A DNA stretch of 36,179 bases from a virus (IMGVR_UViG_3300021168_000064:1-36179), one strand, 5' to 3'; positions 12,689 through 31,650 are shown, counted from the first letter of the stretch. Translations and numbers: made by a program. Notes: generated by a model from the letters alone, not told the origin.

Positions 12689-13671
12689 AGTTCCTCCTGC
12701 CAACTGGAATCGGCGACTCGGTCTGGGCGCTACACAAGGTCCAGTCCGTCCGCGACAAACTGGACCCGTATGGTCCCATCGACATCTCCCTGGTCGGCTC
12801 CCGCGACAAGGTCGACTCGCGCGCCCTCGACTTCGTCCGGCGCTTCCGCTTCGTCAACTCCGTCGACATGCAACCGTTCTCCATTCAGGCGTACGGCCCG
12901 CGCGTCCATCCCGACGGCACCTACAACTACATCTTAGATGGCGACTACACCTTCAACGACGAGCATTACATTGTCCTCATCCCGAACCGGGCGCTGGAGC
13001 AGGGCCTCCGCCTCGAGGACTGGCTGCCGCACTACCAGATTCGGTGGGATATATTCAAGGACTTCCAGATCGAAGTGGTCGAGAGAATCCACGCTGCCGA
13101 CGTCCACGTCCAGATCGGCGACTACTGTGTCTTCTACCCCGGCCCACTCGCTGGTAACACGGTCGAGGGACATAATCGCGGCCCGATCTGGACGCCCCAA
13201 GAGTGGGTCGAGCTGGGCCGACGCATCCACGACGAGTTCGGCCTGCATATCCTCGTGGTCGGCGCGTCCTACGACCACCCATACTGGGAGCAGGTCCTGT
13301 CGCCGCTTGTGAAGGGGAAGGATTACTGGACAAGCGTTATCGGGATGACTAATCTCGGGGAGTTGTGGGCGCTGACCGATCTATCCAAGTTCGTCGTCTC
13401 GTATCAGGCCGGCGTCGGCATCATTAGCACGTACCGAGAGACTCCGACCGCGATCTTCTGGCGCCCACACGGCAACTCAATCAGCTCCAGCCACTACCTG
13501 ACCTTCGACGAGCGCATGGCCTCCGCGTGGGTCCCACCGAAAGTACTGGACTCCGGTACCCATCTTCCACTAATCTACGGACGCTCCAGTGTTGACAGCA
13601 TCATGTCGGAGGTCCGCCAACGTCGGTGGCATGAATCGCCCGCTCATTCTGCTGCTTCTACTGCTCGGTAG
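12685..13671 (+). CDS. Glycosyltransferase, GT9/heptosyltransferase-like
   Basis: N-terminal 'GIGDSVW', then 'WTPQEWVELG', 'ILVVGASYD' and 'IGMTNLGELWAL...FVVSYQAGVGIIS....PT', which follow the GT9 layout. Confidence 0.75.
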   Translation: MKFLLPTGIGDSVWALHKVQSVRDKLDPYGPIDISLVGSRDKVDSRALDFVRRFRFVNSVDMQPFSIQAYGPRVHPDGTYNYILDGDYTFNDEHYIVLIPNRALEQGLRLEDWLPHYQIRWDIFKDFQIEVVERIHAADVHVQIGDYCVFYPGPLAGNTVEGHNRGPIWTPQEWVELGRRIHDEFGLHILVVGASYDHPYWEQVLSPLVKGKDYWTSVIGMTNLGELWALTDLSKFVVSYQAGVGIISTYRETPTAIFWRPHGNSISSSHYLTFDERMASAWVPPKVLDSGTHLPLIYGRSSVDSIMSEVRQRRWHESPAHSAASTAR

Positions 13672-15367
13672 CGCTGGCGTCGCGTCCGCGAATGATTCCG
13701 CGCGTGGCTGGTGCGAAGAAGGCAATCGACCTGTCGTCACCTCAGGATTGAACTCGACGACTCGCGTCCAAGCATCGCATCCATCCTGCACCCTCACAAT
13801 TTACGTCCATGGCGGCGGCCTCGCGACCATCTACAGCGACAACAACCTGACCCCGCTCGCGAATCCCTTCACGTCGCAGACCGACGGGCAATGGCAGTTT
13901 TACGCCGCGAACGGGCGCTACGATGTCACGATGTCCAGCGCTGGATTCAGCCAGACCATCACCTACTCGGATATCCTGCTCTGCGACCCCTTCGCCGTCG
14001 GCTCGACCTGCAACAACGGCGGCTCCGTCCAAGCACATAATCTCCTGTCGACGACGCACCTCGACACCATCCCCGCCTCCCCGCCCGTCCGCGGCGACGT
14101 CATCACCGCCCAGAACCAGACCTCCCCGTCCGGCGTCAACCCTTCCTGGGCGCGTCTCCCGCTCGGGTCGAACAACTTCGTCCTGACCTCGAACGGCGTC
14201 GACGCGATCTGGGCACCTGTCGCGTCCGGCTCCGGCTGCACTCTCCCCGGCAACGACACCGGCATCCTGACCGAGCATCCCATCGGTACCTGCTACAACT
14301 CGATCGACGCGACCTGGAACGACGCGACTCCGTCCAGCAGCGTCAATGGGCGCATCCTGCTGATCGGCGACGGCACCAACTCCGCTACCGCACCCTCGGC
14401 GGGGAACGCGGTCAAGGAAGTCTTCCTGTTCGGCGACCATAACGCATCTACCGGAGTCGGCGTCACGTCCGAGAACTTCGCCTTCGGCAGCACCAACGCC
14501 TTCACCGGATGCTTGAGCTGCACCGCGCTCGGTGACAACAATACCCTCGGCGCGGCTGGCGGTGTCTACACGCAGGTCGCTCTCGGCTACCAGAATACGA
14601 TTGGCCTCAACACCGGCTACGTCTTCGGCGACCAGAACGTGATGAGCGGTCAGGAAGTGTTCAACATCGGCGAGAGCAACTCTCTCAATACGTCCGCCGC
14701 CTCGGTCCACTTCGCGAACTCGATCATCGCCGAGTTCGACGCGACGATCACCCTCGGCGGCATCAACGCCGATGTTCTCGACACCCAGATGCTCGGCAGC
14801 TTCGACACCATCACCGTCGGTAATCCGTCCGGCGGCCATGTCAACCAAGCTAACTGTCTCCATGGCGTCGGCAACGGGAACAGCTTCACCATCACCGGCG
14901 GTCTCGCATCTAGCACCAACATCCAGTCGGTGAGTTGGGTCGGTAAGAACAACGCTTTCACCGCCACAGGGAACTCTATCCAGTCGGTCACCGTAGCAGG
15001 TATCGGGAACACGATCACAGGTCCCATCACCAACGGCGCGATCCATGGTGACGTGAGCACTCTATCTAACTGCAGCAACTGTTATATCGTCGGCGAGAAC
15101 GTCTCGAACTCGACCAACAGCAGCCTCGCGATCGGCATGTCCGCGCTCCCTGGGCTGGTCATCACGACTGCGTCCAGCCACGACAATGTGCAGCGGTCGC
15201 CGCTTCCGTTCGCATCCCTTCCAGCCTGTGCTGCCGGCACGGAAGGCTCCTTCGCCGCAATCACCGATTCGACGACCAACGTCTGGGGTGCCACTATCAC
15301 AGGCAGCAGCACCAATCATGTTCTTGGGTATTGCGACGGGACCAACTGGACCGTCGCGGCTAAATAA
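13631..15367 (+). CDS. Fibre/spike-like protein with N-terminal signal peptide
   Basis: Signal-like MNRPLILLLLLLGSAGVASA|N. Then 'LATIYSD...PLANPFT...DGQWQFYAANGRYDV', resembling tailspike particle-binding domains; G-x-x-N beta-solenoid repeats; and a C-terminal 'LPAC...YCDGTNW' module. Confidence 0.7.
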   Translation: MNRPLILLLLLLGSAGVASANDSARGWCEEGNRPVVTSGLNSTTRVQASHPSCTLTIYVHGGGLATIYSDNNLTPLANPFTSQTDGQWQFYAANGRYDVTMSSAGFSQTITYSDILLCDPFAVGSTCNNGGSVQAHNLLSTTHLDTIPASPPVRGDVITAQNQTSPSGVNPSWARLPLGSNNFVLTSNGVDAIWAPVASGSGCTLPGNDTGILTEHPIGTCYNSIDATWNDATPSSSVNGRILLIGDGTNSATAPSAGNAVKEVFLFGDHNASTGVGVTSENFAFGSTNAFTGCLSCTALGDNNTLGAAGGVYTQVALGYQNTIGLNTGYVFGDQNVMSGQEVFNIGESNSLNTSAASVHFANSIIAEFDATITLGGINADVLDTQMLGSFDTITVGNPSGGHVNQANCLHGVGNGNSFTITGGLASSTNIQSVSWVGKNNAFTATGNSIQSVTVAGIGNTITGPITNGAIHGDVSTLSNCSNCYIVGENVSNSTNSSLAIGMSALPGLVITTASSHDNVQRSPLPFASLPACAAGTEGSFAAITDSTTNVWGATITGSSTNHVLGYCDGTNWTVAAK

Positions 15368-15378
15368 ATGGAGGAAGT

Positions 15379-15663
15379 ATGAAGCGCACTCTTATCATCC
15401 TCGCAACTCTGGTCGTCCTGCTCCTAGCGTATCCGCTCCTATCGCAGCAGCTCGGCACGCACGCTCTACTTCGCCTGATGCCGCACACCTTCGCCGACCT
15501 CGCGATGGCGGACATGACCGGACGCGATGCCATGGCTATCACCGACGGTTACATCACCTATTGCACCGATTGCGCCGTCCCCGCTCACCCCGGCGACAAG
15601 TGCGCTGTGGGTGGAAGCGGTGCAGAGGCGCACCGTATCCGTGGTGCGTGGGTGTGCTACTAG
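15379..15663 (+). CDS. Small Cys-rich protein with signal peptide or membrane anchor
   Basis: GGAGG SD; MKRTLIILATLVVLLLAYPLLS|Q; C-terminal YCTDC...C..GGSGA.A.R..GAWVC. Confidence 0.7.
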   Translation: MKRTLIILATLVVLLLAYPLLSQQLGTHALLRLMPHTFADLAMADMTGRDAMAITDGYITYCTDCAVPAHPGDKCAVGGSGAEAHRIRGAWVCY

Positions 15664-15672
15664 TGGTATAGT
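15664..15672 (+). promoter_or_regulatory. Putative extended -10 internal promoter
   Basis: TG-G-TATAGT in a 29-bp gap, 7 nt upstream of the AAGGAG SD of the 15693 gene. Confidence 0.4.
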
Positions 15673-15692
15673 TCGACACAAGGAGACTCAAT

Positions 15693-15938
15693 ATGCGCGA
15701 CAAATCCTATGCCAGCGAAGCGGCGAACGCACGCATCCTCGGCGCGACTCGTCTACATTGCGACTCGTACAAGGACGATCTCTACAGCGAGACCGACTAC
15801 TACGAGACCGGCGGCGGGCTGACCGAGCGCGTCATGGGACGCGGGCATGTCACCGACTCGCAGTCGGAGCGCTTCAACCGCTGCCTTCGCACCGGTCAGG
15901 CAGGCGAGCGTATCCGGTTCCGCGTCGAGGAGGACTGA
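15693..15938 (+). CDS. Hypothetical protein (81 aa)
   Basis: AAGGAG SD and GC3-biased codons. Confidence 0.7.
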   Translation: MRDKSYASEAANARILGATRLHCDSYKDDLYSETDYYETGGGLTERVMGRGHVTDSQSERFNRCLRTGQAGERIRFRVEED

Positions 15939-15940: not shown

Positions 15941-16156
15941 ATGGCAATGTTGAAGGTCTATCGCGGCCCGTCCATCGAGTCGCAATCGAAGGACTTAGAG
16001 CCGAAGTCCGACCCTGCTGTGATGGGCGGGACCGGCTCGTTCGGCTCCAACATCACCGCGTCCAAGGTCGGTGCGCCGCACAAGACGGGTGTCAAGACTC
16101 TCGGCCAGAAGGCGCTCAAGCCGAAGTCCGTGTCGTCGATGTCGAAGGGATACTGA
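15941..16156 (+). CDS. 71-aa Lys/Ser/Gly-rich basic protein
   Basis: GAGGAGG SD before the ATG at 15941. This is the 3' part of the tracked 15527 ORF. Confidence 0.7.
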   Translation: MAMLKVYRGPSIESQSKDLEPKSDPAVMGGTGSFGSNITASKVGAPHKTGVKTLGQKALKPKSVSSMSKGY

Positions 16157-16157
16157 G

Positions 16158-16340
16158 ATGGCCGACGATCCTAAGTGGATGGAGCACGCCGCTGAACGGA
16201 TGAAGGAGAAAGGTACCGTCGGCTCGTTTGGGAAGGCGACTCCGAAGAAGATCGCCGCCGCGCGCAAGAAGGGTGGTAAGGCTGCGAAGAAGGCCAACTT
16301 TGCCGCCAATGCCAAGAAGGCATCGCATGGGAAGAGGTAG
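16158..16340 (+). CDS. 60-aa Lys/Ala-rich basic protein
   Basis: MADDPKWMEHAAERMKEKGTVGSFGKATPKKIAAARKKGGKAAKKANFAANAKKASHGKR; starts 1 nt after the upstream stop. Confidence 0.75.
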   Translation: MADDPKWMEHAAERMKEKGTVGSFGKATPKKIAAARKKGGKAAKKANFAANAKKASHGKR

Positions 16341-16345
16341 CTAGG

Positions 16346-16522
16346 ATGCCTGCTGAAGAGGTGATGCACAAGTTCAAGGAGGGCGAGCTTCATAGCGGGT
16401 CGAAATCCGGTCCCAAGGTCAGCAACCGCAAACAAGCAATCGCCATCATGTTGAGCGAGAAACGTGCCGCGAAGGCTGGCAAGAGCGAGTACAAGAAGAG
16501 TGGTAAGCGGAGCGGGAAGTGA
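16346..16522 (+). CDS. DUF6496-like small basic protein (58 aa), not in the ORF track
   Basis: MPAEEVMHKFKEGELHSGSKSGPKVSNRKQAIAIMLSEKR... matches the VMHEFK.G.LHSG...V..RKQAIAI.LSE pattern. Confidence 0.8.
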   Translation: MPAEEVMHKFKEGELHSGSKSGPKVSNRKQAIAIMLSEKRAAKAGKSEYKKSGKRSGK

Positions 16523-16722: not shown

Positions 16723-18162
16723 ATGGCCACTCAGGCGCTCCCGTATGCCTACATATCGTTCCTACAGTTCAGACAGGCGCTTTCGCGCCGCTTATACGAC
16801 CCAAGTATGGTCTTCTGGACGGATGCGGAACTCGGTATCTATGCTACAGAAGCGCTGCGGACCTGGAATGCACTCACTGGGTACTGGCGTGGCGATTTCA
16901 CTTCCCCGTCGGCGATATTGACCACTTGGTACGATATCCCGAGTCTGGCTAACACGCTCCGGCCCTACACCGTCCCCGACCAATCCCTCTACGCGACCAT
17001 CCTCTACCATCTGCTGGAGCCGCCGACAGGCGTCGTCTCCGCCCAGTTCTCGAACGACGACATCGTCCAAGCCGTCCAACGGAGACGCGATGAACTCCTC
17101 TCGATCTCGAGCTGCACGCAGACTGTCCGCACGGTTGGCGCTGTCGCCGGGAGAATTACGCTCCCTGACACGGTCATTGACGTCAGGCGGATGGCCTATC
17201 TCCCGACTCAGTCAGTGCTTACAGGCAAAGGTTATGGCACTGGCCGCTATGGATTCGGGATCTATGGGCGGTCAGCGGCTGCGCGGATCGACATCCCGAG
17301 GCCGTCCGTCCTCTGGCCCGAGGACACGTTCGCGGAACAGTCCTACGATGCGCTCTACACGCTGAATCCGGCCGGGACACCGGGACTCCCCTCAACGTAC
17401 CTATTGACGACGCAGCCTCCCTTATCGTTCGATACGAACTGCCCGCCTGCCTTTGGAGGCAGCTACGAACTCCTGACCGTCGAGGCGGGCGTACCGCTTT
17501 CCTTCGCAGGTACAGCGACTCCATTCCTTATCCCCGATGACTGGACCCCTGCTCTCAAGTGGGGCGCGCTGGCTGACCTGTTCGCACGAGAGTCGAACGC
17601 GCAGGATCCTTTACGCGCTGCCTACTGTGAGCAACGCTACCGACAGCTCGCTGCAATCCTGCGCGACTCCGCGCCTGCGTTGCTGGCGATGCGCGTGAAC
17701 AATGTCCCAGCGCAGGTCAGCAGTGTCCGTGGGACCGACCTCTACAACACCTCATGGCAAGGCGCGGACCCAGGAGTCCCTCAGTCGGTCAGCTACGCCG
17801 GGATGAACCTATTCGCACTCAATCCGCCTGCGGATAGCGGCGTGAACGGCGTCCCTTACGACCTAACCGTGACGGTGGTGGAAAATGCGCCTGTACCTAC
17901 TTTGGATGCTGACCTCGTTCAGGTTTCTCGCGAGGACCTTGACGCGCTCCTAGACTACTGCGTCCACATCGCGATGCTGAAGGCAGGCGGCGCGGACTTC
18001 ATGGCGACGATGCCGCTCTACAAGCGGTTCATGTCGCAGGCGACTCTCTACAATCGCAAGTTGAGCGAGGCGGGCGAGTACACCGACACACTCATGGGCA
18101 TGGCCGTCCGTGAGCGCAACCTGAATCCGGTCCAGCAACCCGTCCCGGTCGAGGAACAGTAG
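16723..18162 (+). CDS. Tail adaptor/ring protein (putative, two adaptor-like units)
   Basis: 'RRLYDPSMVFWTDAELGIYATEALR' N-terminus and 'IPDDWTPALKWGALADLF' helix; directly upstream of the nozzle-like gene. Confidence 0.65.
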   Translation: MATQALPYAYISFLQFRQALSRRLYDPSMVFWTDAELGIYATEALRTWNALTGYWRGDFTSPSAILTTWYDIPSLANTLRPYTVPDQSLYATILYHLLEPPTGVVSAQFSNDDIVQAVQRRRDELLSISSCTQTVRTVGAVAGRITLPDTVIDVRRMAYLPTQSVLTGKGYGTGRYGFGIYGRSAAARIDIPRPSVLWPEDTFAEQSYDALYTLNPAGTPGLPSTYLLTTQPPLSFDTNCPPAFGGSYELLTVEAGVPLSFAGTATPFLIPDDWTPALKWGALADLFARESNAQDPLRAAYCEQRYRQLAAILRDSAPALLAMRVNNVPAQVSSVRGTDLYNTSWQGADPGVPQSVSYAGMNLFALNPPADSGVNGVPYDLTVTVVENAPVPTLDADLVQVSREDLDALLDYCVHIAMLKAGGADFMATMPLYKRFMSQATLYNRKLSEAGEYTDTLMGMAVRERNLNPVQQPVPVEEQ

Positions 18163-18163
18163 G

Positions 18164-21100
18164 ATGCCGAACGAGACCTTTACACGCGACCGACAAGGCC
18201 ACCGTGCAGCCTTCAAGGGCTGGTCACCGAACAATCCACCCGATTCGCTGGCACCGGACCAGTACCCATACGCGCAGAATGTAAGGGTCATCAATGACCT
18301 GTCGATCGAGACCCGCGCGGGGCAGGTCCTCTCGTTCGCGACAGGAACCGCTCCCGTCACAGACATGCGCTCCTATGTCGAACTCGAAACGGATGGCGTC
18401 CCGCGCACTCTCGCCCGCGACTCGACCGACGCGATCTGGCTCGACAACGGGACTCAGGTCGGGACACTTACTCCCGGCAGCCTCGGTGCTGTGTTCGTCC
18501 CGTTCCGCCCCAACCAGTCCCCGAACCCGTACATGTATATCGCTAATGGGGACGACTACCAGAAGTTCAGTGCGCCTAACCCGACCGTCGTCGCGTCCAA
18601 GGTCGGTATAGCAGAGCCGCAACCAGCCTGCGAAGCCGCGCAGGTCGCGCAGTCCTTTTTCGAGATCCTCTCGCCGGGCGGCACATGGAACACAGGCGGG
18701 ACGGCCTCGGCGTGGACCTCCGGTTCACGTTCCAGCGATATCATCGTCGCCTCCTTTGGAGACCCGGTATTCCCGACGCCCGAAGGCCATCTCCATCCTG
18801 TGACGCCGCCGCGGATCAGCATCCAGGTCTCGCCGACCGTCCAGTACCAGCGTGGCGAGATCCTCTACTTCAACGGAGCCTCACCCTTCATCGCCATCGT
18901 CGAAGAGGTCATCGCGCCCTTGTCGATCAGCATGACCGTCCAGGCAATCTACACGAAGCCTGACGGGCTGACCGTTGTCGCTCTGCAAGGGATCACCGCT
19001 CCGTCGAAGGCCAAGCTCCAGCAGACACAGTCCGGCGTGATCCTCGACAACTCCGAGGTGATCGCCCAGCTCGTCCGCGGCGCGATCATCCAGATCGGCT
19101 CCGAGTCCGCCTTCGTCAGGTCGGTCACGTCCGGCCCCGACAACCAGATATGCATCGAACTATTCCTGAACAATCCACACTCGGCGGGCGAGAACGTCGT
19201 CGGGCTGCCAACCATTATTGTGAATGGCGTCCCGCAGGGCGCGACGGTCACCGCCGGGACTCCCATCATCGGCGACATGGGCAACGTCGAGACCTTTTCT
19301 GTCGGGACCGGACTTGGGACCCTTACAACCGGACCTCCAGGCGGTGGACCGACTGGGACGATCATTGTCCGCGCGACCTCGACCCTGAATGGCTGGGGAC
19401 CTAACGGTCATGTCGGCGCTTACGAGATGGGCGTCAATCAGGGATTCGGTTGGGGGCTGGATCCGTCCACTACGTCCGGATACAACAATCCAGGGAATGT
19501 CAGCGACGGCAGTACGACCACTTTCGCCGACGCGACCGGCCAGCACACCCACACTTACTACGGCTCCATCTGGGCGTTCTTCGGCGGCGTCCCGCAATCC
19601 AGTATGGCTCTGAATATCAACTCCCGTGTCCTCGCGAATGGAGATGACGGACTGTCGGTTAATAGACGCTCTGCGGGAATCTGGTACTCGCTCGACAATG
19701 GCCTCACCTGGAACCAGATCTACAACATGGGGCCGCTACTCCCATCGGTCCAGCCGCTCTCACGCCCGCAGCAATGGGACTCCATCCCTCTCCCTGCAAA
19801 CCAGGACCTTACCCAGGTCCAGGTAATGGCCTTCACAGACTCGCACGACGACATGGTCCACCGAGTATATGAGATCAATATCTCGGCAGGAGCGGCCTCG
19901 ATCGGCGTCGGGACCGGAGCGTTCCAGGAATCGGACTACCTGCACTTCTCGGTACTGGTCGACAATCCAGCCAATCTCGCCGAGATGCGCCTGCAGTTCG
20001 ACGTCAGTGACGGGACCTTCCTGTCGAACTGGTTCATGACCGGAGTGCGACCGTCGGACCTTGTCAGCGCTACGACGGCGACGACGCCAATCACGCTCCT
20101 CGCAGCGACCCAAGCCATCGTGTCCGAAACGAACACGTACCAGGGCGCCGGTCAGCTCAACCTGACGACGTCGACGCCCTCAGTCGCCGGCGAAGGCCAA
20201 TGGACCGAGGTCTGGATCCCGATCAGCGCCCTCACGCGAATCGGCGGCGACCAGACCAAGACACTCGCCAACATAAACGCAGTGCAGGTCTATGTAAACG
20301 CGGTTGCGACTGTCCGGATCAGCATCTCCTCTATCGCGTTCGTCGGCGGCGGCCAGCCTGACGTCGGCGACATCGGCGAGCCTTATCGCTACCGGGTCCG
20401 GCCGCGCTCAAGCCTAACCGGCGCGATCGGGAATCCATCCCCGGATATGCGCTACGGCATCCCCGCGCGGCGCCAGCCTGTCCAGGTCGATCTCCCGTCA
20501 GCGGCCTACGACGCCCAAATAGATCGCTGGGACGTCTTCCGCTTCGGTGGCTCGGTCACCAGTTGGCGCTTCATCGGCTCCATCGTCTCCAGCGCGACCT
20601 CCTTCCAAGACAATTACCCTGACGAAGCCGCTCAGGCAGGCGAGGCGCTGGACTTCGATAACTTCGAGCCGTGGCCCTCTATCGACTTCCCGCTCAACGC
20701 GACGGCGTCGATCATCGTCGGTACGGAGGCGGTCGTCTCTATCCCGTCCCCGACCAATGCGCTCCGGTTCCTTCCCGGTAACCTTGTCAACCTTGGGGGC
20801 CAGTCCGTCTACACGCTCCGGAAGCGACCAGTCCTACTCAGTGGGACTAGCTACCTGTTCGAGTTCGTCGAATGCACTGCTGGATTCAACCAAGGTGCCA
20901 TCTCGGATAACGGTCAGGTCACGATCTACGAGCCTGCTCTCGCGCGACAGTTCCTTCCCTACATGTGGGGACCAGACGTGAACGGGACCGTATTCGCGGT
21001 CGGGGACCTACTCCGTCCAGGGACGCTCTACTTCGCCAAGGGGAATAATCCGGACAGTGCGCCGGACGCGTTCAACCAGGAGCTAGTCGCGCCGACAGAG

Positions 21101-22375
21101 CCGCTGATGGGTGGCCTAGTCCTCGATGGACTCTCGTTCGTCGCCTCCACCGAGCGCTGGTGGGCACTCTATCCTCAACCAACCAACCCGTTGCAGCGCT
21201 ATAATCCAGTCCAGCAGCCTCTCCCGCGCGGACTCGCCGCACCCTACGCTTGCACCACCGACGGCTCGCAGATCTTCTTCTGGGCGAAGGACGGGATCTG
21301 GTCATCCGGCAAAGGATCGCTGACCGACGCTGATCTCTATAACCTATTCCCGCATGACGGCGTCCCTGGAGAGGCGCAGACCTACGGGCCTCCAGGACTG
21401 GCGCACACGGTCCTTCCACCCGACTACGCTCAGGCTGGCACGTTCCGCTTAACCTACTGTAACTACTACCTCTACGCCACGTATCAGGACAACCTCGGTA
21501 ATTACAACACTCTCGTCTACGACACGCGACGCAACGCATGGGAGGTCGATCTCTACGCGTCGCAGGTCACGCGGTTCTATCATCCAGAGCAGCAGGCGGG
21601 GACGGTTCTATCGAGAGCGACCCGCTATCCAGAGCTACTGATGGCCGACATCAAGGGACGCGTCTCTATCCAAGCGCCCTTCAATAACGACTTGGACGGA
21701 CCTATCCCGGTCCTGCTCGCCACGTTCGAGGACCCAGGCGGGGACTTGCGCGCACTGAAGCAGTGGGGCGACACGTTCGTCGACGCCATCTGCCCGTCTG
21801 GCATGACCATCAACATGATGTCACAGGCGGTGCAGGTCGGAGCGCCGCTCGCGGTCGCTGCCTCCGCCACCCGCGCCCGTCAACCAGTCAGTGTCGGCAA
21901 CGCTCTCGTCGTCAGCGCCTTCATGGGACTCTATTTCAGTTGGACCGACGACTTCACCACGCAGACCGAGCCAACCACTCTGTTCCTGTGGCAGACCTCC
22001 TATGTAATTCAGCCAGCACAGACCATCCAGTGGCGGACGCTCGGGACCAGTTTTGGGATGCAAGGGTACGGGCATCTTCCACAAGTGTCCATCGCCTACA
22101 TCTCGGCAGCCGACGTGACGCTGCAAATCACTTCCTACGACGGTCAGTCTCCACTGCCTATCACGCTTCCATCGTCGGCGGGCACGTATGTCAAGAAGCT
22201 GTTTAGGGTCAGCGCGAATAAGGGACAGTTGTATGCGTTCGCCGCGACTTCATCAGCGCCTTTTCAGATATTTCTTGATGATAGCGAGGTTCTAGTCGGG
22301 GCTTGGTCTCGTCAGGATCCCTACGCCGTCATCAAGTCCTTCCTGTCCGGACCCGTAGATGGAGCACCTTTATGA
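18164..22375 (+). CDS. Tail nozzle / stabilisation protein (P22 gp10-like position) with inserted beta domains
   Basis: 1403 aa. N-terminal 'FKGW...PPDSL....Y.YAQNV' and propeller-like segments ('GTLYFAK..NPD', 'IFFWAKDGIW', 'TLVYDTRRNAW'). Confidence 0.65.
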   Translation: MPNETFTRDRQGHRAAFKGWSPNNPPDSLAPDQYPYAQNVRVINDLSIETRAGQVLSFATGTAPVTDMRSYVELETDGVPRTLARDSTDAIWLDNGTQVGTLTPGSLGAVFVPFRPNQSPNPYMYIANGDDYQKFSAPNPTVVASKVGIAEPQPACEAAQVAQSFFEILSPGGTWNTGGTASAWTSGSRSSDIIVASFGDPVFPTPEGHLHPVTPPRISIQVSPTVQYQRGEILYFNGASPFIAIVEEVIAPLSISMTVQAIYTKPDGLTVVALQGITAPSKAKLQQTQSGVILDNSEVIAQLVRGAIIQIGSESAFVRSVTSGPDNQICIELFLNNPHSAGENVVGLPTIIVNGVPQGATVTAGTPIIGDMGNVETFSVGTGLGTLTTGPPGGGPTGTIIVRATSTLNGWGPNGHVGAYEMGVNQGFGWGLDPSTTSGYNNPGNVSDGSTTTFADATGQHTHTYYGSIWAFFGGVPQSSMALNINSRVLANGDDGLSVNRRSAGIWYSLDNGLTWNQIYNMGPLLPSVQPLSRPQQWDSIPLPANQDLTQVQVMAFTDSHDDMVHRVYEINISAGAASIGVGTGAFQESDYLHFSVLVDNPANLAEMRLQFDVSDGTFLSNWFMTGVRPSDLVSATTATTPITLLAATQAIVSETNTYQGAGQLNLTTSTPSVAGEGQWTEVWIPISALTRIGGDQTKTLANINAVQVYVNAVATVRISISSIAFVGGGQPDVGDIGEPYRYRVRPRSSLTGAIGNPSPDMRYGIPARRQPVQVDLPSAAYDAQIDRWDVFRFGGSVTSWRFIGSIVSSATSFQDNYPDEAAQAGEALDFDNFEPWPSIDFPLNATASIIVGTEAVVSIPSPTNALRFLPGNLVNLGGQSVYTLRKRPVLLSGTSYLFEFVECTAGFNQGAISDNGQVTIYEPALARQFLPYMWGPDVNGTVFAVGDLLRPGTLYFAKGNNPDSAPDAFNQELVAPTEPLMGGLVLDGLSFVASTERWWALYPQPTNPLQRYNPVQQPLPRGLAAPYACTTDGSQIFFWAKDGIWSSGKGSLTDADLYNLFPHDGVPGEAQTYGPPGLAHTVLPPDYAQAGTFRLTYCNYYLYATYQDNLGNYNTLVYDTRRNAWEVDLYASQVTRFYHPEQQAGTVLSRATRYPELLMADIKGRVSIQAPFNNDLDGPIPVLLATFEDPGGDLRALKQWGDTFVDAICPSGMTINMMSQAVQVGAPLAVAASATRARQPVSVGNALVVSAFMGLYFSWTDDFTTQTEPTTLFLWQTSYVIQPAQTIQWRTLGTSFGMQGYGHLPQVSIAYISAADVTLQITSYDGQSPLPITLPSSAGTYVKKLFRVSANKGQLYAFAATSSAPFQIFLDDSEVLVGAWSRQDPYAVIKSFLSGPVDGAPL

Positions 22376-22665
22376 CCACCCGCTGGTACCCAAGCCATGA
22401 GCAGTTGAAGGACCCGCAGTCCACCGAACGGTCCTTTCGAGAGACCCTCCGCATCCTATATGACCTACAGGACTCGCACGCTGCGTTACAGGCTCAGGTC
22501 AAGTCCTCTCAAGCGGCTTCGCCGCAGTCGTCGGCGTCGTCGACCAGCACTGCCTCCGTGTCGCGCCTCCTTGGTCTCCCGGTCGAACCGTCCGACACGA
22601 CCCAGCTCGCCGACGGGACCACTCTTACGTATGACAAAAATAACCGCAGGTTCGTGTTCAAATGA
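22372..22665 (+). CDS. Small tail-associated protein (97 aa)
   Basis: ATGA overlap with the nozzle stop, GGAG SD; short coiled coil followed by a beta C-terminus. Confidence 0.65.
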   Translation: MTTRWYPSHEQLKDPQSTERSFRETLRILYDLQDSHAALQAQVKSSQAASPQSSASSTSTASVSRLLGLPVEPSDTTQLADGTTLTYDKNNRRFVFK

Positions 22666-22678: not shown

Positions 22679-25600
22679 ATGAAGCGACACCTGGCCCTGC
22701 TGCCTCTGCTACTGCTGCTCTCTATCGCGACGCGCGCACAGGTCGTCGCCTTCCCTGGCGCTCAGGGTGGCGGAGCGGCCAGCGTTGGCGGGCGCGGCGG
22801 CGTCGTCTTTGAGGTCACTAACCTGAACGATAGCGGGGCTGGCTCCCTACGTGCCTGCGTCATCGCGTCAGGACCACGGACCTGCGTGTTCCGCACGGGC
22901 GGCACGATCACGCTGCTGTCAGCGCTGATCGTCACCAATCCCTTCCTCACCATCGCCGGACAGACCGCGCCGGGCGGAGGAATCCAAGTCATCGGGACTG
23001 GAATCACCATCTCCCCGACGCATACCTTACAGATCAATACGCACGACGTTATCGTCCGCTATATGAAGTTCCGGCCGGGATTCAACTCCCTAGATGGGGC
23101 TGGTTCTGGTGACGGCAGCGCGGTCCTCGTCGGTAACTTCGGAGACGGCTACAACATCATGATCGACCATTGCTCGCTGGAACTCGCTCACGGCGAGTCC
23201 TATGTGACCTTCAGCAACGATCAATCAGGCAAGCATAACCAGACACTGTCATGGAGCATCGCTGGACTAATGCTGGGCGACCATCCGACCGCTATCCTAT
23301 CCGGAGCGAATGACCTGACCGGTACGGCGTCCATGATCGATATCGACTTCCACCATAATCTGATCGGCGTCGCCACGCACCGCAACCCTCTACTGAAGGG
23401 TCAGAACTCGCGCTTCGTAAACAACCTAGTCTACGATTGGTTCTACTACTCGTCCCTCGGTGGCGGTGGCATCGCGCTCGACTACATCAACAACATTTAC
23501 AAGGCTGGGCCGATGTTCACTGGAACGGGATCAGCTAGCGGATGGGAGATCACCTCATACTGGAACCAGACCTGCAACTCCGACTGCGGGCCGAACTCGC
23601 AGCCTTCTGTCTACATGAGCGGCAACATAGGTCCGAACGATCCGACTGCAGCCAACAACGCCGCCAACATGTACCGCCAAGACAGCGCTGAAGGACCAGG
23701 AACGATAAGCCCCGCTCCGAGTGCGTGGGTGCGCGGGACTCCACAGTCCGCTCCTGCGACCGGGACTGCGATCACCGCAGGTCCAACCGCTACTCTGGCC
23801 AGCAGCGTAACGGGCGGCGTAGGCGCGTCGCAGAAGTTGAGTGATACGGCCTGCGATGGAACCTTCGTGAGTAACCGTGACTCGCTCGACACGCTTATGG
23901 TCGGGTACTTTAACAACGCGACAGGACCGACAACCGGAACCGCTTATGGAGGCGGGCACGTTCCCACGACACAGGCTGACGTAGGAGGATTCCCGACACT
24001 AGTCGCAGGGACGGCTTGCGCCAGCACCTTGCACGACGGCATCGCCGACGCATGGAAGACCAAGTACGGGCTGAGCACGTCGGACCCGAATCTCTACAAG
24101 ACAACCGCCCCGAACGGCTACACTTACCTAGAGAGCTATCTCGGCGGGCTGTCCCCGACCGGTTCGAATGTCTACTACGCGCAGACCGCAGCAGGCGCGG
24201 GTAATGGCGCGGACTGTGCTGATGCTAAGGCTCTCCCGATCCTGATCGGCGACCAGATACCAGGCATCACCATCCATCTGTGCGGGACGATCACAGGCGC
24301 TCTTAGCGCTACCGGAATCACCGTCGGGGCCAGCGGCACGACAGGGAATCCGATCACGTTTCTATTTGAGCCGGGGGCGGTGATGACTTCCGCTGCCTGG
24401 GGCGCAGCCTTCACGATGAGCAACAAGAGCAACATCGTCATCGACGGAGGAACGAACGGCGTCATCCAAAACACAGCCAACGGCTCTCTACTGGCGAACC
24501 AGCTCGGCACAGGCGGAGTCTCGGTAACTTGTGGCAGCAATATCGAAATCAAGAATCTCAGCTTCATCAACATGTACGTCCACGTTCCGTCTGGAGAGGA
24601 CGGCGGCAGTTCAGGGGCGATCTCCGTAAATTCGTGTGCATCGCCGCAGTCAGGGCTGCACTTCCACAACCTCACCATTCACGACGCGCACAGCGGTATC
24701 TTCGTGCAGTACGGGCCGGGATTCTCTAATTCCGAGTTCGACCACAACACCATCTCCAACATTGTATGGGGCATCGCGCTGCTAGATAACAACAACGGAT
24801 CGACCGCGACCGGAGTCCTAGTCCATGACAACGACATCCACGACTTCGCAAACTGGTTCGACGGGGCGTTCAACTTCCACTTCGACGGGATCTTTTTCTC
24901 AGCGTTCGCGCCGAGTACGACCTTCACCAGCTCCAGCATCTGGAACAATCACGTCTGGGGTTCGACGAACGTAAACGGGACCGGGTATATCTTCCTCTCA
25001 GGCAGCGGCGGCGGCATGTTCGGTATCAACGTATTCAACAATCTACTTGGCGCTCCGGTAAGCATCCTTAGCCCGCCAACCCCTGCCGGTTCTCCTGAAG
25101 CCCATATCGTCATGGGATTCGGGCCGCACAACGTCAACTTCCTGAACAATACGATGGTCGGTATCGCGCAAGGAGCGCCGCAGAACTGTATCCGCATTAG
25201 AGACAGCGGCGCGTCTGGTATCGTCCTGCAGAACAACATTTGCAGCAACGCCGTCTCGGCCATCGACCTTTACGCAGGGAACACGGTCAGCGCAGCGAAC
25301 TATAACCTCTACGATCTACCGTCCGCGTTCAAGAACCTGCAGTATTTCGTGCATCCTGACGGGACATTCCAGGCGACCTTCGCGGCATGGATCTCCGCTA
25401 CCGGACTCGACACGCCGAACTCAGTCAGCGCCGCGCCTCTACTTAACTCCAGCACCTTCGTCCCACAATCCGGATCGCCTGCGCTCAACATGGGTTCCGG
25501 GACGAATTTGAGTAGCCAGTGTACCGGACAGCTCGTTCCACTCTGCTTCGATAAGCCGCAAGTAGTAGGTGCGGGAGCATCAGGCACGGGCAACGCGCGG

Positions 25601-26854
25601 CCTGCGACTGGACAATGGACTGTTGGGGCATATCAAGTTGTCTCCGGTTCCGTGGCTCCCGCAGCACCGACCGGACTCACGGGAACGGTCTCAGGGTCGA
25701 CAGTATCGCTATTGTGGACGGCATCGGCAGGCACACCCGCACCGACCGCTTACACTGAATATAGAGGGACGGTGCATGGCGGGCCTTATGTCGCCGTCAA
25801 GTCTGGGATCACATCTACTAGCGTGACCGACACTCCCGTCAATGGGACCTACTTCTACGTCGTCACGGCCTTTGTTGGCGGCGTCGTCTCTAGTATCAAT
25901 GGGAACGGATCGACGGCGACCGTGACCTGCGCCGCGGCGTGTACCTTCCCGAGCGGGACCGCCTTCACTATCGCGGGAGACTCGACCGTTGCGTTCAACG
26001 GGACCTTCACCTCGACAGGGCAGCCGACCTCTACTACCTTCACCTTCGCCTCATCGACAAGCGGATCCGGTACCGGCGGCGGCGCATGGCAGTCCGGTGC
26101 CGAGAGTGCGAAGTCGAACGAGATCACGGTGACGACGCCGGCGACTCTGACCGTCTCACTGCTACCCGCGAGTCGCGTCTTCGCATCCACTATAGTCGGG
26201 TCACCATCTGCGTCTCAGTCCGTCACCCTCACCAACACGAGCGGCTCAGGCGGGACCGTCACCATCAGCAGCAAGTCCATCACAGGTCCGAACGCGGGAG
26301 ACTTCAGCTTCACCGACAACTGTCCCTCTCTGCTGCTATCGACGGTTAGCTGCACCTTCAACATTACCTTCCTGCCAACCGCGCCGGGAGCGCGCTCCGC
26401 GAACCTGACCGTTGTAGATAACGCGACCGGGTCGCCGCAGACGGTAGCGCTCTCAGGTACCGGAGTCGCGCAGACACCTGTCGTCACGCTGAGTCCGACC
26501 TCACTGAACTTCGGTGACCAGTCCGTCTCAACGACGTCGACTGTCCGGTCGATCATCCTGACCAACACAGGCTCGGGGACGCTGACCGTCTCGTCCGTCG
26601 CCGCCTCGGGAGACTTCGCTGTCACGACGGTCCCATCTACTAATTGTGGCGGGACGCTGGCACCGTTAGCGACCTGCTCCCTGAACGTCACCTTCACGCC
26701 GACAGCGACTGGAGGCAGGACAGGCGCGGTAACCGTCACAGATAACGCCGCTGGCTCTCCACACGTCGCTACCCTGACCGGCAACGGCATAACTATTAAG
26801 TGCGCGATGACCGGAAACGTGACATTATCCGGAGCGGGGAGTGTGTGCCAATGA
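22679..26854 (+). CDS. Signal-peptide-bearing multidomain protein: PL1-type pectate lyase + second beta-helix + FN3 + two ASH/choice-of-anchor-D-like Ig domains
   Basis: MKRHLALLPLLLLLSIATRA|Q, then AFPGAQG.G....GGRGG.V.EVTNLNDSGAGSLR, TIAGQTAPGGGI, IDHCS, HRNP and DGIADAW. C-terminal repeats 'SVTLTNT...CTFNITFLPTAPGARSANLTVVDNATGSPQTVALSGTG'. Alternative start at 22670. Confidence 0.85.
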   Translation: MKRHLALLPLLLLLSIATRAQVVAFPGAQGGGAASVGGRGGVVFEVTNLNDSGAGSLRACVIASGPRTCVFRTGGTITLLSALIVTNPFLTIAGQTAPGGGIQVIGTGITISPTHTLQINTHDVIVRYMKFRPGFNSLDGAGSGDGSAVLVGNFGDGYNIMIDHCSLELAHGESYVTFSNDQSGKHNQTLSWSIAGLMLGDHPTAILSGANDLTGTASMIDIDFHHNLIGVATHRNPLLKGQNSRFVNNLVYDWFYYSSLGGGGIALDYINNIYKAGPMFTGTGSASGWEITSYWNQTCNSDCGPNSQPSVYMSGNIGPNDPTAANNAANMYRQDSAEGPGTISPAPSAWVRGTPQSAPATGTAITAGPTATLASSVTGGVGASQKLSDTACDGTFVSNRDSLDTLMVGYFNNATGPTTGTAYGGGHVPTTQADVGGFPTLVAGTACASTLHDGIADAWKTKYGLSTSDPNLYKTTAPNGYTYLESYLGGLSPTGSNVYYAQTAAGAGNGADCADAKALPILIGDQIPGITIHLCGTITGALSATGITVGASGTTGNPITFLFEPGAVMTSAAWGAAFTMSNKSNIVIDGGTNGVIQNTANGSLLANQLGTGGVSVTCGSNIEIKNLSFINMYVHVPSGEDGGSSGAISVNSCASPQSGLHFHNLTIHDAHSGIFVQYGPGFSNSEFDHNTISNIVWGIALLDNNNGSTATGVLVHDNDIHDFANWFDGAFNFHFDGIFFSAFAPSTTFTSSSIWNNHVWGSTNVNGTGYIFLSGSGGGMFGINVFNNLLGAPVSILSPPTPAGSPEAHIVMGFGPHNVNFLNNTMVGIAQGAPQNCIRIRDSGASGIVLQNNICSNAVSAIDLYAGNTVSAANYNLYDLPSAFKNLQYFVHPDGTFQATFAAWISATGLDTPNSVSAAPLLNSSTFVPQSGSPALNMGSGTNLSSQCTGQLVPLCFDKPQVVGAGASGTGNARPATGQWTVGAYQVVSGSVAPAAPTGLTGTVSGSTVSLLWTASAGTPAPTAYTEYRGTVHGGPYVAVKSGITSTSVTDTPVNGTYFYVVTAFVGGVVSSINGNGSTATVTCAAACTFPSGTAFTIAGDSTVAFNGTFTSTGQPTSTTFTFASSTSGSGTGGGAWQSGAESAKSNEITVTTPATLTVSLLPASRVFASTIVGSPSASQSVTLTNTSGSGGTVTISSKSITGPNAGDFSFTDNCPSLLLSTVSCTFNITFLPTAPGARSANLTVVDNATGSPQTVALSGTGVAQTPVVTLSPTSLNFGDQSVSTTSTVRSIILTNTGSGTLTVSSVAASGDFAVTTVPSTNCGGTLAPLATCSLNVTFTPTATGGRTGAVTVTDNAAGSPHVATLTGNGITIKCAMTGNVTLSGAGSVCQ

Positions 26855-27255
26855 CGACGACACTGAATCTAGTGCTGCCAACGGTTGGTGGATCGGCGAA
26901 TCAATGGGGGACGATTCTGAACACGGCGTTCGGCATCGTCAACACTTTGGGCGGTGTCCAGGTCGTCAACGTCAACTCCGCCTACCTCGCGACCTTCACA
27001 CCCTATCCGGAGATGGTCATCCGCGTCACGACGTCCGGACTCAATATCCCGATCACCCTCCCCAACTCAGGCTCCGTCTCAGGGAAGATTTATCTGGTCA
27101 AGAAACTGGATGCAGGCGCGGGTGCGGCGCAGATTCTCACGCAGGGGACCGACACGATCGACAACCAGACCGAGTGGGATCTAACCAACCAGTATCAATA
27201 TGTCCGTTTGTACGCCAACGGGACAAGTGGGTATGACGTGATCGGGAGTTCATGA
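26851..27255 (+). CDS. Short tail-fibre anchor/adaptor-like protein (134 aa, no signal peptide)
   Basis: ATGA overlap. '[22 protein letters not shown]' is a fibre-type N-terminus, followed by an 'ITLP...GKIYLVKK.D...DTID...Y.YV.L' beta-sandwich. Confidence 0.65.
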
Positions 27256-29657
27256 TGAGACGACTCTACCTAGCCCTGCCATTCTTCGTACTCGTACTCT
27301 CCGGCTGTCCGCAAACGCAAGCTCAGGGTGGATCTGGTAAGTCCACCCTGGTCCAGTCCTCACCGGAGCCGCTCCCAGCCTGCACTCCAGCAACCGTCGG
27401 TCGCCAAGAGCCAATCATCTGGGACCTAACGACAGGCCAGCTTATGGCTTGTGGACCATCAGCGAATCAATGGTCGCAGGCGAACAGCGGCGGCGGTGGT
27501 GGCGGAGTCTCCAGTTTCAGCGCAGCCGGTACCCTCGGGCCATTCGCGACCTTCGCGGTCACGACATCTACCACGACTCCCTTACTAACCTTCACGGTTA
27601 CCAGTCAGGCAGCGAATACCGTCCTCGCAGGACCGACCACTGGTGGTTCGGTGGCGCCGACCTTTCGCACGCTGGTCGCGGCCGACATCCCGCTCATCTC
27701 TCTCGCGACCGGGATCACCGGGAACCTGTCTACTAGTCACCTTAACAGTGGGACCAGCGCTGGAGCGACCACCTTCTGGCGCGGCGACGGTACGTGGGCG
27801 GTGCCTTCAGGTTCAGGTAGCGTCAGTCTTATCTCGACCACGGGTCCTATCAGCGGCGGACCGATCGCGACTACTGGGACGATCTCGTGTGCGACCTGCG
27901 TGACCAGTGCGGCGTCGCTCACCCTCAACCAGCTTGTGATCGGTGGTGGCGGGCAGGCGACTTCGACTCTCGGGTCGCTCGGGTCGACCGTGACGGTCCT
28001 ACATGGCAATGTCGGCGGCGCACCCTCGTTCGGTCCTGTAGCGCTCTCGACCGACATCACAGGGAACCTGCCCGTGACGAACCTGAACGGCGGCACGTCG
28101 GCATCCTCGACTACTTTCTGGCGCGGAGATGGCACATGGGCAGCCCCACCCGGCACCGGCACCGTCACCAGCATAACCTTCAGCAGCCCGCTCACCGGTG
28201 GCACTGTCACTACGACGGGAACGGTCGGATGCGCTACTTGTGTAACCTCCGCAGCCTCCTTGACTAGTAATTCTTTGATGGTAGGCAGCGGCAGCCAGGG
28301 GTCTCAGACCCTAGCATCTACTGGCACAACTACGACCGTTCTCCACGGGAACGCTGCTGGCCTACCATCCTTTGGTGCCGTCAGCCTCACGACCGACGTG
28401 ACAGGTAACCTTCCGGTAGCCAACCTGAACTCAGGTACCTTGGCATCCAGCACGACCTTTTGGAGAGGTGACGGAACATGGGCGACGCCAGCAGGCAGCG
28501 GGAACGTAACAGCAGGCGGGACCTTGACTATAAATCAACTGGTGATCGGCGGAAACACGACCGCTGTCTCGACCCTCGGTTCCCTTGGGACGACTACTAC
28601 CGTCTTGCACGGCAATGCTGGTGGAGCGCCATCGTTCGCTGCGGTCAGCCTGACGACCGACGTAAGCGGGAATCTGCCCGTCACAAATCTGAATAGCGGG
28701 ACCAGCGCGTCCAGCTCGACGTTCTGGAGAGGGGATGGGACATGGAGCGCACCACCGGCGACGGGAATCACCTCTTTAAACGGACTTACTGGGACGACTC
28801 AGACCTTCGCAACCGGGACGGCTGGGACAGATTTCGGAATCAGCTCGTCCGGAACAACTCACACGTTCAACATCCCATCGGCGTCGGCGGTCAATCGGGG
28901 GTTGGTCACTACTGGAGCGCAGACCATTGGCGGTCAGAAGACACTAGCCGCAGGGACCATCACCGCTAACCAGATTCTCGACATCACCGGGACTTACAAC
29001 TCAGGCGGGACGACCTTCGACGGCATTCTACTCGACGTGACGGATACCGCGTCAGCTGGCGGGAGCTTCCTTGAGCGTCTCCGCGTCGGCGGGACGGCGC
29101 AGTGGAGCGTTACCAAAGCTGGCGTCGGGACGCTCCTAGGTGCGTTCACGGCGCTGAGTCTGACCAGTAATGGCGCTGGATCCGGAAAGCTCTCACTGAC
29201 AGCCAGCGGCGGCGGAACCTTCGGCATCGTCGCGCCCGCATCCGTGTCCAGCTTCAACTGGACGGTACCCTCGGCGGATGCTGCTGGACTTGTTCAGGAC
29301 GACGGCTCCGGCAACCTGACCTTCAACACCGCAGTCCGTCAGGGCGCGCCGACAGTCAGTAGCGGCTTCGGCACCGGACCTTCGATAGCAGCCAACAATG
29401 GTCCCTTGGCCTTCACCGTCAACGTCGGTACTGGCGCATCTGCCTCCAGCGGCGTCATCGGCCTCCCGACCGCGCCGACCGGCTGGAACTGCTGGGTCAA
29501 CGATATTACCGCCGCCGCGGCCAACGTAGCGTACAATACGCGCCAGACCGCCTCTACCGTGTCGACGGCGACCGTTCAGAACCAGACTACGAGTACGGGC
29601 GCGGCGATCGCATGGGGCGTGTCGGACATTCTTAGAGTAAGTTGTGTGGCGTACTAA
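27252..29657 (+). CDS. Repeat-rich fibre-like protein with signal peptide/lipobox
   Basis: [18 protein letters not shown]|C (lipobox LSGC). Very Thr/Ser/Gly-rich, with four FWRGDGTW repeats. Confidence 0.75.
27720..28750 (+). repeat. Four intragenic repeats GNL...[14 protein letters not shown]
   Basis: Phe codons of FWRGDGTW at 27774, 28116, 28458 and 28722 (spacing 342, 342, 264 nt). Confidence 0.9.
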
Positions 29658-29658
29658 T

Positions 29659-31650
29659 ATGAGACGATATCTACTACTAACGATATTGATGCTGGCGGGA
29701 CTCGCTCCTGTGTTCGCACAGTCCAACGTAAGCGGCGGTACCGCAGGCGGCAGCCCGACCGGACCCGCTGTCGGCTGCACCAGCGATGGTGTCAATCCGA
29801 CGCGCTGCCCGAACGGAATCAACACCGCCGTTAATGGTGACTACGAGGAGTACACGGTTGACACGGGAGGCGTCACTGCAGGTCTAGCGCTTTGCGCGAC
29901 CTCAAACGTGGATGCGGCTGGACGGCCCAAGGTCCTGCCCTGTTCACACGTCGCGGCGAATCCCGGCGCCGGATTCGTAGGTATAGCCAAAGCCAGCGTG
30001 GCTGCAGCAGGCACGGTAGTCGTATGTTGGACGGTAAACTGTTCTGCTACCTTCGACAATGGATCAACCGCGCTTAATGAAGCGATTATGTCGGTTACTA
30101 CCGACGGCCAGCTTCACGACACGGGAGCACAGACGGCTACGGCGGGCCAGCCCAACTTCTCCATTCTCAACGCCAATGGTGGATCAGGAAACTCGCTTAT
30201 CAGCCTGACAGGTATGCTGGCGCAGAATCCGAAGGGCGGAGGCAACAACGGTAAGGGTGGCGGCATCAACAGCGTCAACTCCGCCACGGGGCCAGCGGTG
30301 ACGATTCAAGGCGTGGGTTCGACTGGGGTATCTACCTCTGGAAATACCATCAGCATTTCAGGCAGCACGACCGGAACCATTGCAGGCACTTGGAGCAATT
30401 TCAGCGGCAATTATACCGTGGTAGATACCGACAACGGGAATAGGCTGCGCTTTACCACCAGCGCTGCGGCTGTCACCCTGCCACAACCGGGCACGATCTC
30501 GTCAGATCCATTTGTGGCCATGCGGGCACAAGTGAATATGGGTGGAAGCCCACCATTTACATCTTCTTCATTCGCTACCACCGCCGGACATCAGATGTGG
30601 ATCAGCATCAACGCCAACGGAACCTCTACGGTCAGTTCTCTAAGCCTGTCTACTGGAGATAGTTGTCCCCAGCAGAGCGCGACCACGGGCGCTAACGCGT
30701 CTTATGTCTACTTTTGCCCATCCTTGGTCGGCGGCGGATCGGTCACAATCACCGTCAACTATACGCTTGGATCAGCGAGTCAAATAGGCTTATTCGCAAT
30801 GGAGCTGGTAGGAACAACCTTCGACAATGCGCAGACTGGGATTTCGCCAAGCGGGTTTAGCAACATCAGCTTGACTAATCCTATTCACTTTACCAACGCG
30901 GTTGCTATCATCAATCAACAGAATGGCACCAACCTGCCTCCCTCGGGATTCGTAGAAAAGGATTCGTTACTTAATGGCAATACCGGATCGGCTTCTAATC
31001 GGTTCTTGAGCAATTCCAACTCGATTTCTACAACCAGTTTAGGTGCAATATCTTTTTCGCAAACAATCGCCTCCATCTCGAACCATCCAACCTTTGTCGC
31101 GGGCTGGCAGGTGGTGGTGGAGAACGCGTCGACTGGAACTCAGACGGTAACTTCGACCTCTTCGACAATCAACGGACAGACGACTCTGGTGTTAGCTCCT
31201 AACGAAATTTGCAACTTGCAAAGCAATGGCGCGAATTGGGATGCCGTTTGCGGATTCGCTCCCAACATCACCTTTAACGGAGCGGTCGGCAGCGCGATAC
31301 AGATCGGCTACGCACAAAACCTCGCCCGCAACTCCACTTTAGGCACAACTACCATAGTTACGACGGGGGCCAGCGATGCGTTCTATACAGTAGATGCTGA
31401 TATCAACTGTACCGGGACGACTTCTACTGGCGTAGGCACGCTGACGATAACTTTTACCGATACAAGTAACACAGTGCAGACTGCCACTGCAAATGCCGCC
31501 TGCACAACTCTAGGTTCGGCCAGTCTTGGTTCTATTCGGCAAGCCTTTCGAGCTAAGGCTAGCACCAATATTCAGTACGGGATTTCATTTACTGGAACGC
31601 AGTCTACGGTAGATGTCAGCGTGGCAGTAAATCAGTTAAGTACTAGGTGA
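29659..31650 (+). CDS. Fibre/decoration-like protein with signal peptide
   Basis: MRRYLLLTILMLAGLAPVFA|Q. Thr/Ser/Gly/Asn-rich beta domains; the 3' two-thirds is visibly lower in GC. Confidence 0.75.
   Translation: MRRYLLLTILMLAGLAPVFAQSNVSGGTAGGSPTGPAVGCTSDGVNPTRCPNGINTAVNGDYEEYTVDTGGVTAGLALCATSNVDAAGRPKVLPCSHVAANPGAGFVGIAKASVAAAGTVVVCWTVNCSATFDNGSTALNEAIMSVTTDGQLHDTGAQTATAGQPNFSILNANGGSGNSLISLTGMLAQNPKGGGNNGKGGGINSVNSATGPAVTIQGVGSTGVSTSGNTISISGSTTGTIAGTWSNFSGNYTVVDTDNGNRLRFTTSAAAVTLPQPGTISSDPFVAMRAQVNMGGSPPFTSSSFATTAGHQMWISINANGTSTVSSLSLSTGDSCPQQSATTGANASYVYFCPSLVGGGSVTITVNYTLGSASQIGLFAMELVGTTFDNAQTGISPSGFSNISLTNPIHFTNAVAIINQQNGTNLPPSGFVEKDSLLNGNTGSASNRFLSNSNSISTTSLGAISFSQTIASISNHPTFVAGWQVVVENASTGTQTVTSTSSTINGQTTLVLAPNEICNLQSNGANWDAVCGFAPNITFNGAVGSAIQIGYAQNLARNSTLGTTTIVTTGASDAFYTVDADINCTGTTSTGVGTLTITFTDTSNTVQTATANAACTTLGSASLGSIRQAFRAKASTNIQYGISFTGTQSTVDVSVAVNQLSTR

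Follow-up and report, generated by a model that had tools for sequence, protein, structure and literature searches.

According to the accepted view, the particles of tailed phages are completed in the reducing cytoplasm of the host cell. How, then, should a tail module be understood in which five genes begin with export-type leaders? The question is raised by the linear viral record IMGVR_UViG_3300021168_000064 (36,179 nt, 58% complete; this whole stretch is termed the window), which comes from a short-tailed soil phage. Its structural genes lie on the + strand, and encode a portal, a capsid protein, two adaptors, and proteins in the positions of the nozzle and of the ejection proteins. Since the five genes begin with such leaders their products are likely to be exported, and we regard export and cleavage of these proteins as highly probable. 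That they are also oxidized in the periplasm and dock on virions at lysis is in our judgement reasonably probable, and attachment is favoured by a head-binding-type domain, by the interchange of leader-bearing and leaderless forms in one slot and by the scarcity of other large fibres. The literature searched (most subscription journals and the Tunturi supplements lay outside it) contains no description of exported virion fibres in tailed phages.

The capsid protein of the window matches only those of phages Tunturi_1 and Tunturi_2 (31.6% identity) among 50,697 annotated phages. These are cultured 63-kb podoviruses of Tunturiibacter, a genus of Acidobacteriota (PMC11924767). They are similar to the window phage in having homologous terminase, portal, capsid, adaptor and nozzle genes in the same order in ~63 kb, with core proteins that are about 30–38% identical. 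On account of the capsid match and of binned contigs, Acidobacteriota are the probable host of the window phage. A complete twin genome (G007) encodes portal, capsid and nozzle proteins that are 100% identical to those of the window. A Pfam scan of its 24 non-window proteins found DNA polymerase A, and no match to an integrase, a Dsb protein or a secretion system; this fits a lytic phage that relies on host machinery. Further relatives came from 49 capsid loci, of which 29 were checked; the 20 with a nozzle gene were taken whole, and the other nine are short fragments. The comparison set consists of 20 related phage genomes of ~63 kb, and family searches were made over 21 records.

The leaders start at 13631, 15379, 22679, 27252 and 29659. 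Translation gives all five N-termini as they had been quoted in an earlier reading of the sequence alone (the sequence-only reading), all on the + strand, each with a basic n-region, a hydrophobic core and a small-residue cut site. A gene caller agreed on the starts of 13631 and 15379. Its choice differed by 1–3 codons for 22679 and 27252, and in 29659 it fell 10 codons within the leader. Across the relatives, genes were called blind to leaders before scoring, and the scoring used a heuristic of our own (i.e. not SignalP) in which alternative starts were allowed equally in every class. Among proteins of at least 400 aa a leader is present on 57 of 77 in the variable tail module (48 of 77 at the called start), on none of the 81 core proteins and on 2 of 83 elsewhere; at a threshold of at least 200 aa the corresponding fractions are 68/139, 0/165 and 7/196. 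The core parts have no signal, as the sequence-only reading stated, and the relatives do keep the signals, with at least two leader-bearing fibre-like genes in 20/20 genomes. The dipeptide [AGS]Q falls at residues 15–34 in 60/83, compared with 110/676. The mature Cys count is even in 55 of 62 leader-bearing proteins, compared with 66/118 core proteins, 79/138 others and 31/59 leaderless tail-module proteins. Within the window it is even for 15379, 27252 (C19 being set aside) and 29659.

No leaderless non-core fibre-like protein of at least 200 aa is encoded by 14 of the 18 near-complete genomes, among them the twin; for three of the 14 this depends on leaders judged by eye, and a leaderless protein of 253 aa in G006 falls below the composition cut. 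The leaderless candidates that are left are the 226-aa 5807 protein, 26851, 31661 and a hypervariable insert of the nozzle-position protein. We note that in many relatives the module or its vicinity also encodes small (120–200 aa) lipoproteins and proteins with leaders; spanin parts may be among them.

The most informative of the five is 13631 (13631..15367, +), comprising a leader (residues 1–20), a head-binding-type domain (~21–120, with Cys28 and Cys53) and a variable S/T/G-rich body that has no Pfam or PHROG match. Residues 21–120 are found in 20/20 genomes, always after adaptor 1 or after an optional glycosyltransferase (GT) block, and they follow a leader in 17/20 (G006 and G015 of these judged by eye). 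The domain was modelled with a pLDDT of 77, and the top three PDB rows in Foldseek are tail chains of cyanopodophages Pan3 and Pam1 (E 0.044–0.049, probability 1.00). A profile match to the Pan3 'Tail spike protein' has E 0.38. BFVD yields 16 viral models at E≤0.001, and those that have a name are spikes, depolymerases and pectate-lyase-superfamily proteins; tblastn matches lie in 12 annotated phage records, including a 'head-binding domain-containing protein' and a 'tail spike protein'. From this concordant, individually weak evidence we read the N-terminus of 13631 as a tailspike head-binding-type domain.

Known podovirus tailspikes are made and attached in the cytoplasm. 13631 is like them in its domain fold and motif at the mature N-terminus with a variable body behind, and its gene adjoins those for SU10-type adaptors and the nozzle-position protein. 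It is unlike them in its Sec-type leader, in an inserted hairpin with a Cys pair and in its Cys-paired body. The tailspikes compared are P22 gp9, those of Pam1 (7EEQ) and Pan3 (9VYG), and A4 gp24; in A4, head-binding domains contact the adaptor and the nozzle (PMC12002296).

Are the leader and the cysteines linked? A profile of the head domain matches 2970 clusters (50% identity) at E≤1e-10. Within the best 150 of these, a leader is present in 135, every one of which retains both conserved Cys; 11 begin at the domain, six of them without the first Cys (the other five may be mis-called starts), and four are truncated. In G018, G020 and G021 a leaderless form occupies the same slot, with WC changed to FA and 1–3 Cys in 439 aa, and these genomes still have leader-bearing genes in a second slot. 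Of 88 further loci, 53 were read; in distant phages the form is plain and leaderless, and phages of the same family have one or the other. The leaderless forms occupy the same modules and are dispersed over the tree, and two trees require four or seven leader changes. As part of the two-compartment reading, this suggests that a leader could be gained or lost on one and the same tailspike. Taken with the family-wide leaders and the Cys parity, the covariation of leader and Cys gives good support to the sequence-only proposal of export and oxidative folding.

Alternatively, the leaders might have no effect or be bypassed: a second start at the mature end, or poor export, would leave a cytoplasmic form that assembles normally. 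A Met is indeed present at the mature start of 9/131 leader-bearing head domains, and 3/5 of the leader starts in the window have no Shine-Dalgarno match. Yet the remaining 122/131 have no such Met. A true start downstream of the hydrophobic segment, which the sequence-only reading had raised, is not available to 13631, where there is no in-frame start between codon 1 and codon 40; there is therefore no leaderless form that would hold the whole head domain. The Cys parity and the missing first Cys of leaderless forms moreover fit an oxidizing compartment, and we consider inert leaders quite improbable.

How would exported proteins reach the particle? Holin lesions let large proteins pass, and P22 tailspikes attach to tailless heads in vitro. 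We propose that the products of the five genes are exported by the host Sec system, and that they would be clipped and disulfide-bonded in the periplasm. Oxidation would fall to host Dsb-type enzymes, given that the complete twin genome has no such Pfam match. The exported and cytoplasmic pools would then come together as the cell bursts or by way of holin lesions, with docking on finished tails at lysis. Like ordinary tailspikes, 13631 would use its head domain to dock where adaptor and nozzle join. Adaptor 1 (6917..7936, +; no leader) is a candidate dock for this domain. It is of the podovirus SU10/GP4 type, and its model (AF2 pLDDT 75.5) matches 7z47 (E 3.5e-4) and 8jov (E 5.5e-4) in Foldseek.

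Other exported fibres would be caught by leaderless small proteins that are built into the particle. 26851 (26851..27255, +) is a 134-aa leaderless short fibre-like protein whose gene lies directly upstream of a 27252-type gene in 7/7 of the records that hold it (six without the twin) among the 21 searched, with one weaker 27252-type copy that lacks 26851. The suggestion that 26851 is a dock gains genomic support from this coupling, and we treat 26851 as a candidate cytoplasmic anchor for 27252. The latter (27252..29657, +) has a leader, a conserved two-Cys N-domain and repeated fibre units with a ten-letter motif. Its proposed lipoprotein cut (between LSG and C19) is kept in the window, G007 and G006, and is absent from G002, G003, G004 and G013. 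These four orthologues carry a signal-peptidase-I site between A and Q, so that A24/Q25 is a rival cut for 27252.

The last of the five, 29659 (29659..31650, +), has a leader, the mature start QSNVSGG and a 12-Cys fibre-like body, and has no match among annotated phages. Its N-terminal motif, which was defined after looking, occurs in 12/21 records, 11 of them within two genes of 31661. This neighbour (31661..32095, +) is a conserved 144-aa virus-only protein with no leader that is present in 21/21 records, and its homologue in Tunturi_1 is annotated 'tail fiber protein'. It is a candidate second anchor, and either 31661 or 22372 might hold 29659-type proteins; 22372 (22372..22665, +) is a conserved 97-aa gene with no leader whose family occurs in 20/21 records. 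The 31661 gene is duplicated in G002, G006 and G008; in the first two of these, another block of tail-module genes follows the extra copy.

The two leader-bearing proteins that are left may be free or attached secondarily. 15379 (15379..15663, +) consists of a leader and a 72-aa four-Cys protein (94 aa in all), and is limited to the window phage, the twin and G006 (3/21 records). The description of all five genes as fibre- or spike-like is apt for the four large ones and not for this small protein. 22679 (22679..26854, +) has a leader, a pectate-lyase-like domain, a Gly/Asn-rich repeat region and two ASH/HYDIN Ig domains. A long frame from 22460 was considered as the start of this gene; it is spurious because the conserved 97-aa gene fills 22372–22665. 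A mixture, in which 13631 and 27252 would be on the particle and 22679 free, is plausible.

A number of observations weigh against assembly on the virion. The Cys count is odd in 13631 (13 Cys) and 22679 (23 Cys). The genomes compared are related (close kin are e.g. G019/G024 and G020/G021), so that the counts overstate independence, and leaderless fibres are present in 4/18 near-complete genomes. The head-domain model has no PDB fold match at E≤0.001 (TM 0.44–0.49). Well-supported branches of the trees force one leader change alone, and repeated switching is weakly supported. The nozzle-position protein has a hypervariable insert at ~aa 400–600 (median identity 0–7% at aa 401–600) that could be a receptor-binding or host-range part made in the cytoplasm; Atlas yielded no more than weak leads for it. 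Lastly, many secreted proteins of bacteria, some of them named from Acidobacteria, are ~40–45% identical to 22679, and this closeness makes the latter a likely capture from a host.

The same set of observations includes exported head-domain fibres in bacteria. A phage-type copy stands alone in an Acidobacteriota chromosome (L145 in G030) beside glycosyltransferases, and a related head domain occurs in 226/401 sampled genomes of that order (218 without eight matches that are flagged as unpublished); in an even, phylum-wide sample the figure is 3/401. Adaptor 1 matched 0/151 genomes of the order, the same query having matched 3/4 genomes elsewhere. In 19 of 20 regions read (L260–L279) the host gene encodes a leader, a head-like domain and a long Cys-paired fibre, mostly of 1400–1550 aa when mature, in conserved non-phage surroundings that are syntenic in most of the 19. 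The sequence-only reading would have been weakened by closeness to host proteins, and here it is in part: the nearest relatives of 22679 are bacterial, and hosts encode an exported head-domain fibre. We also note that the host gene is mostly single-copy, with a leader, a QGSR start, the head-like domain and Pect-lyase_RHGA_epim, and that it usually lies near a gene for a secreted ASH/Ig protein on the opposite strand; the literature searched does not describe it.

A precedent is Pantoea stewartii WceF, which is exported with a P22-like head domain (PMC7949094). Together with the host fibres this indicates that a head domain behind an export signal can work without a virion. 13631 resembles WceF in having an export signal, a P22-like head domain and a tailspike-like body, and host relatives of 13631 likewise occur in glycosyltransferase clusters (L276, L145; one host copy lies inside a GT4 cluster). 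In contrast to WceF, a chromosomal, Tat-exported enzyme, the window genes are phage-encoded, have Sec-type leaders, belong to a tail module and interchange with leaderless forms; nor are they chromosomal exopolysaccharide-cluster genes, only the host copies L145 and L276 being in GT clusters. The MAT fibres of Bdellovibrio are a further parallel (PMC10769870): these mosaic fibres are likewise exported and akin to phage spikes, and their signal peptide is followed at once by a conserved ~130-aa beta-rich domain; unlike the window proteins, they are bacterial surface adhesins.

It might be asked whether the exported proteins never join the particle, and act in the manner of WceF as tailspike-derived proteins that bind or cut glycans on the surface of the infected cell, where the sequence-only reading also allowed for their display, or in the lysate. 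They would release progeny from capsule or biofilm, or prevent re-adsorption, and the virion would bind through the nozzle insert and small leaderless proteins. The host fibres, the copies in glycosyltransferase clusters, WceF, the host-like 22679 and the variability of the nozzle insert all speak for such a role, as does the overlap of the 13631 gene with the end of the phage's own GT block. Against it, the host fibres group in a distinct clade (SH-aLRT 99), lack the N-terminal hairpin and carry another Cys pair, and the leader-bearing phage head domains group with leaderless phage ones. The head-domain gene is in 20/20 genomes, compared with 9/21 records for each of the two GT families. The complete twin has no integrase match, so that long-term display by a lysogen is not indicated. 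On balance we think a purely non-virion role unlikely, though a serious contender. As part of the two-compartment reading, the host clade suggests that a large host order may have independently domesticated a leader and head-domain fibre as a conserved chromosomal gene.

Cultured phages allow the trait to be placed. Tunturi_1 has leaders on gp12, gp13, gp14, gp16 and gp17 (judged by eye), gp12 being the head domain (E 3.3e-26), and differs from the window phage in having no GT block. The main text of the Tunturi paper contains no occurrence of 'signal peptide' or 'mass spectrom' (PMC11924767). In the cultured myovirus Tunturi_5, leaders are present on 6/11 genes read; gp337–342 (L144:9115–23449) are six consecutive leader-bearing genes, three of them annotated tail fibre, and offer a second test system. 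Tunturi_3 and Tunturi_4 infect the same host genus, and reading 17 and 13 of their structural-region genes, respectively, revealed no leaders. This also counts against the proposal, and it indicates that the host does not dictate the trait.

The closest approach to evidence for exported proteins on a tailed virion comes from Cellulophaga phage phi18:3 (GenBank KC821620), in which three (gp085–gp087) of the 12 proteins read that are marked as structural from MS/MS have leaders, with a predicted mature Gln. Like the window proteins these are leader-bearing phage products, and their recovery with virions according to the record argues against a role wholly off the particle. Unlike the window proteins they have 0, 1 and 3 Cys, and therefore no disulfide signature; the host belongs to the Bacteroidota, and the record alone allows co-purification.

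A meeting of exported parts and particles would also be explained if the particles crossed or budded through the inner membrane, and matured in the periplasm before release from an intact cell; 27252 could then be a lipoprotein tether. However, the module of relatives includes genes for endolysin and for small lipoproteins (gp21 of Tunturi_1 is an endolysin), and no secretion or assembly ATPase or secretin was matched by Pfam among the 24 non-window proteins of the twin. Tunturi_1 and Tunturi_2 are described as ordinary podoviruses (PMC11924767). We regard this route as highly improbable, and continue to prefer docking at lysis.

The portal, capsid, 5807, adaptor 2 and nozzle-position genes of the window have no leaders. 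The portal protein (403..2475, +) matches Pfam P22_portal (2.2e-7) and PHROG 156. The major capsid protein (4637..5779, +), related to the major head protein of Tunturi_1/2 as given above, is followed by the S/T/G-rich 226-aa protein (5807..6487, +), found in 21/21 records with 0 leaders. Adaptor 2 (16723..18162, +) is an SU10_adaptor (PF24175, 2.4e-6). The nozzle-position protein (18164..22375, +) has no family match and is named from its position and size; its counterpart in Tunturi_1, gp31, is annotated 'virion structural protein'. The optional block between adaptor 1 and 13631 (8423..13671, +) comprises, by Pfam, Glyco_transf_9+TPR, two copies of Methyltransf_24 and Cupin_2, and varies between relatives. 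Its possible targets for glycosylation are the virion and exported S/T-rich proteins; alternatively, it could alter the surface of the host. About 490 nt (7937–8422) between adaptor 1 and this block have no called gene. Several tiny Lys/His-rich genes lie in the head and tail modules (3119–3425 and 15941–16522), such as a 38-aa K/H/E-rich open reading frame and a DUF6496 gene at 16346; these are possible DNA-binding or condensing proteins. In the twin, a DpdA match (L064:10123–10728, E 8.7e-37) suggests deazapurine modification of the DNA, and the polymerase gene further encodes a UDG-superfamily domain at its N-terminal end.

Taken as a whole, the balance tips slightly towards a widespread lineage of Acidobacteriota podoviruses in which the core would be built in the cytoplasm and a disulfide-locked adsorption apparatus in the periplasm, with a head-binding domain and small cytoplasmic anchors linking the two when the cell lyses, and with gain and loss of the leader and domestication by hosts. 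Even if the proteins had no place on the virion, lytic phages would be spending ~9 kb of late genes on exported glycan-acting proteins that are mirrored by a host gene, an investment that is undescribed in the literature searched. The family is large, with the 2970 clusters noted above (leaders being counted in the best 150), and Tunturi_1 is in culture on a harmless soil host, so that the claim can be tested directly. If it is true, infectivity would depend on the host Sec and Dsb systems and on the timing of lysis, and phages could recruit any secreted, disulfide-bonded carbohydrate-binding protein of the host as a receptor-binding part.

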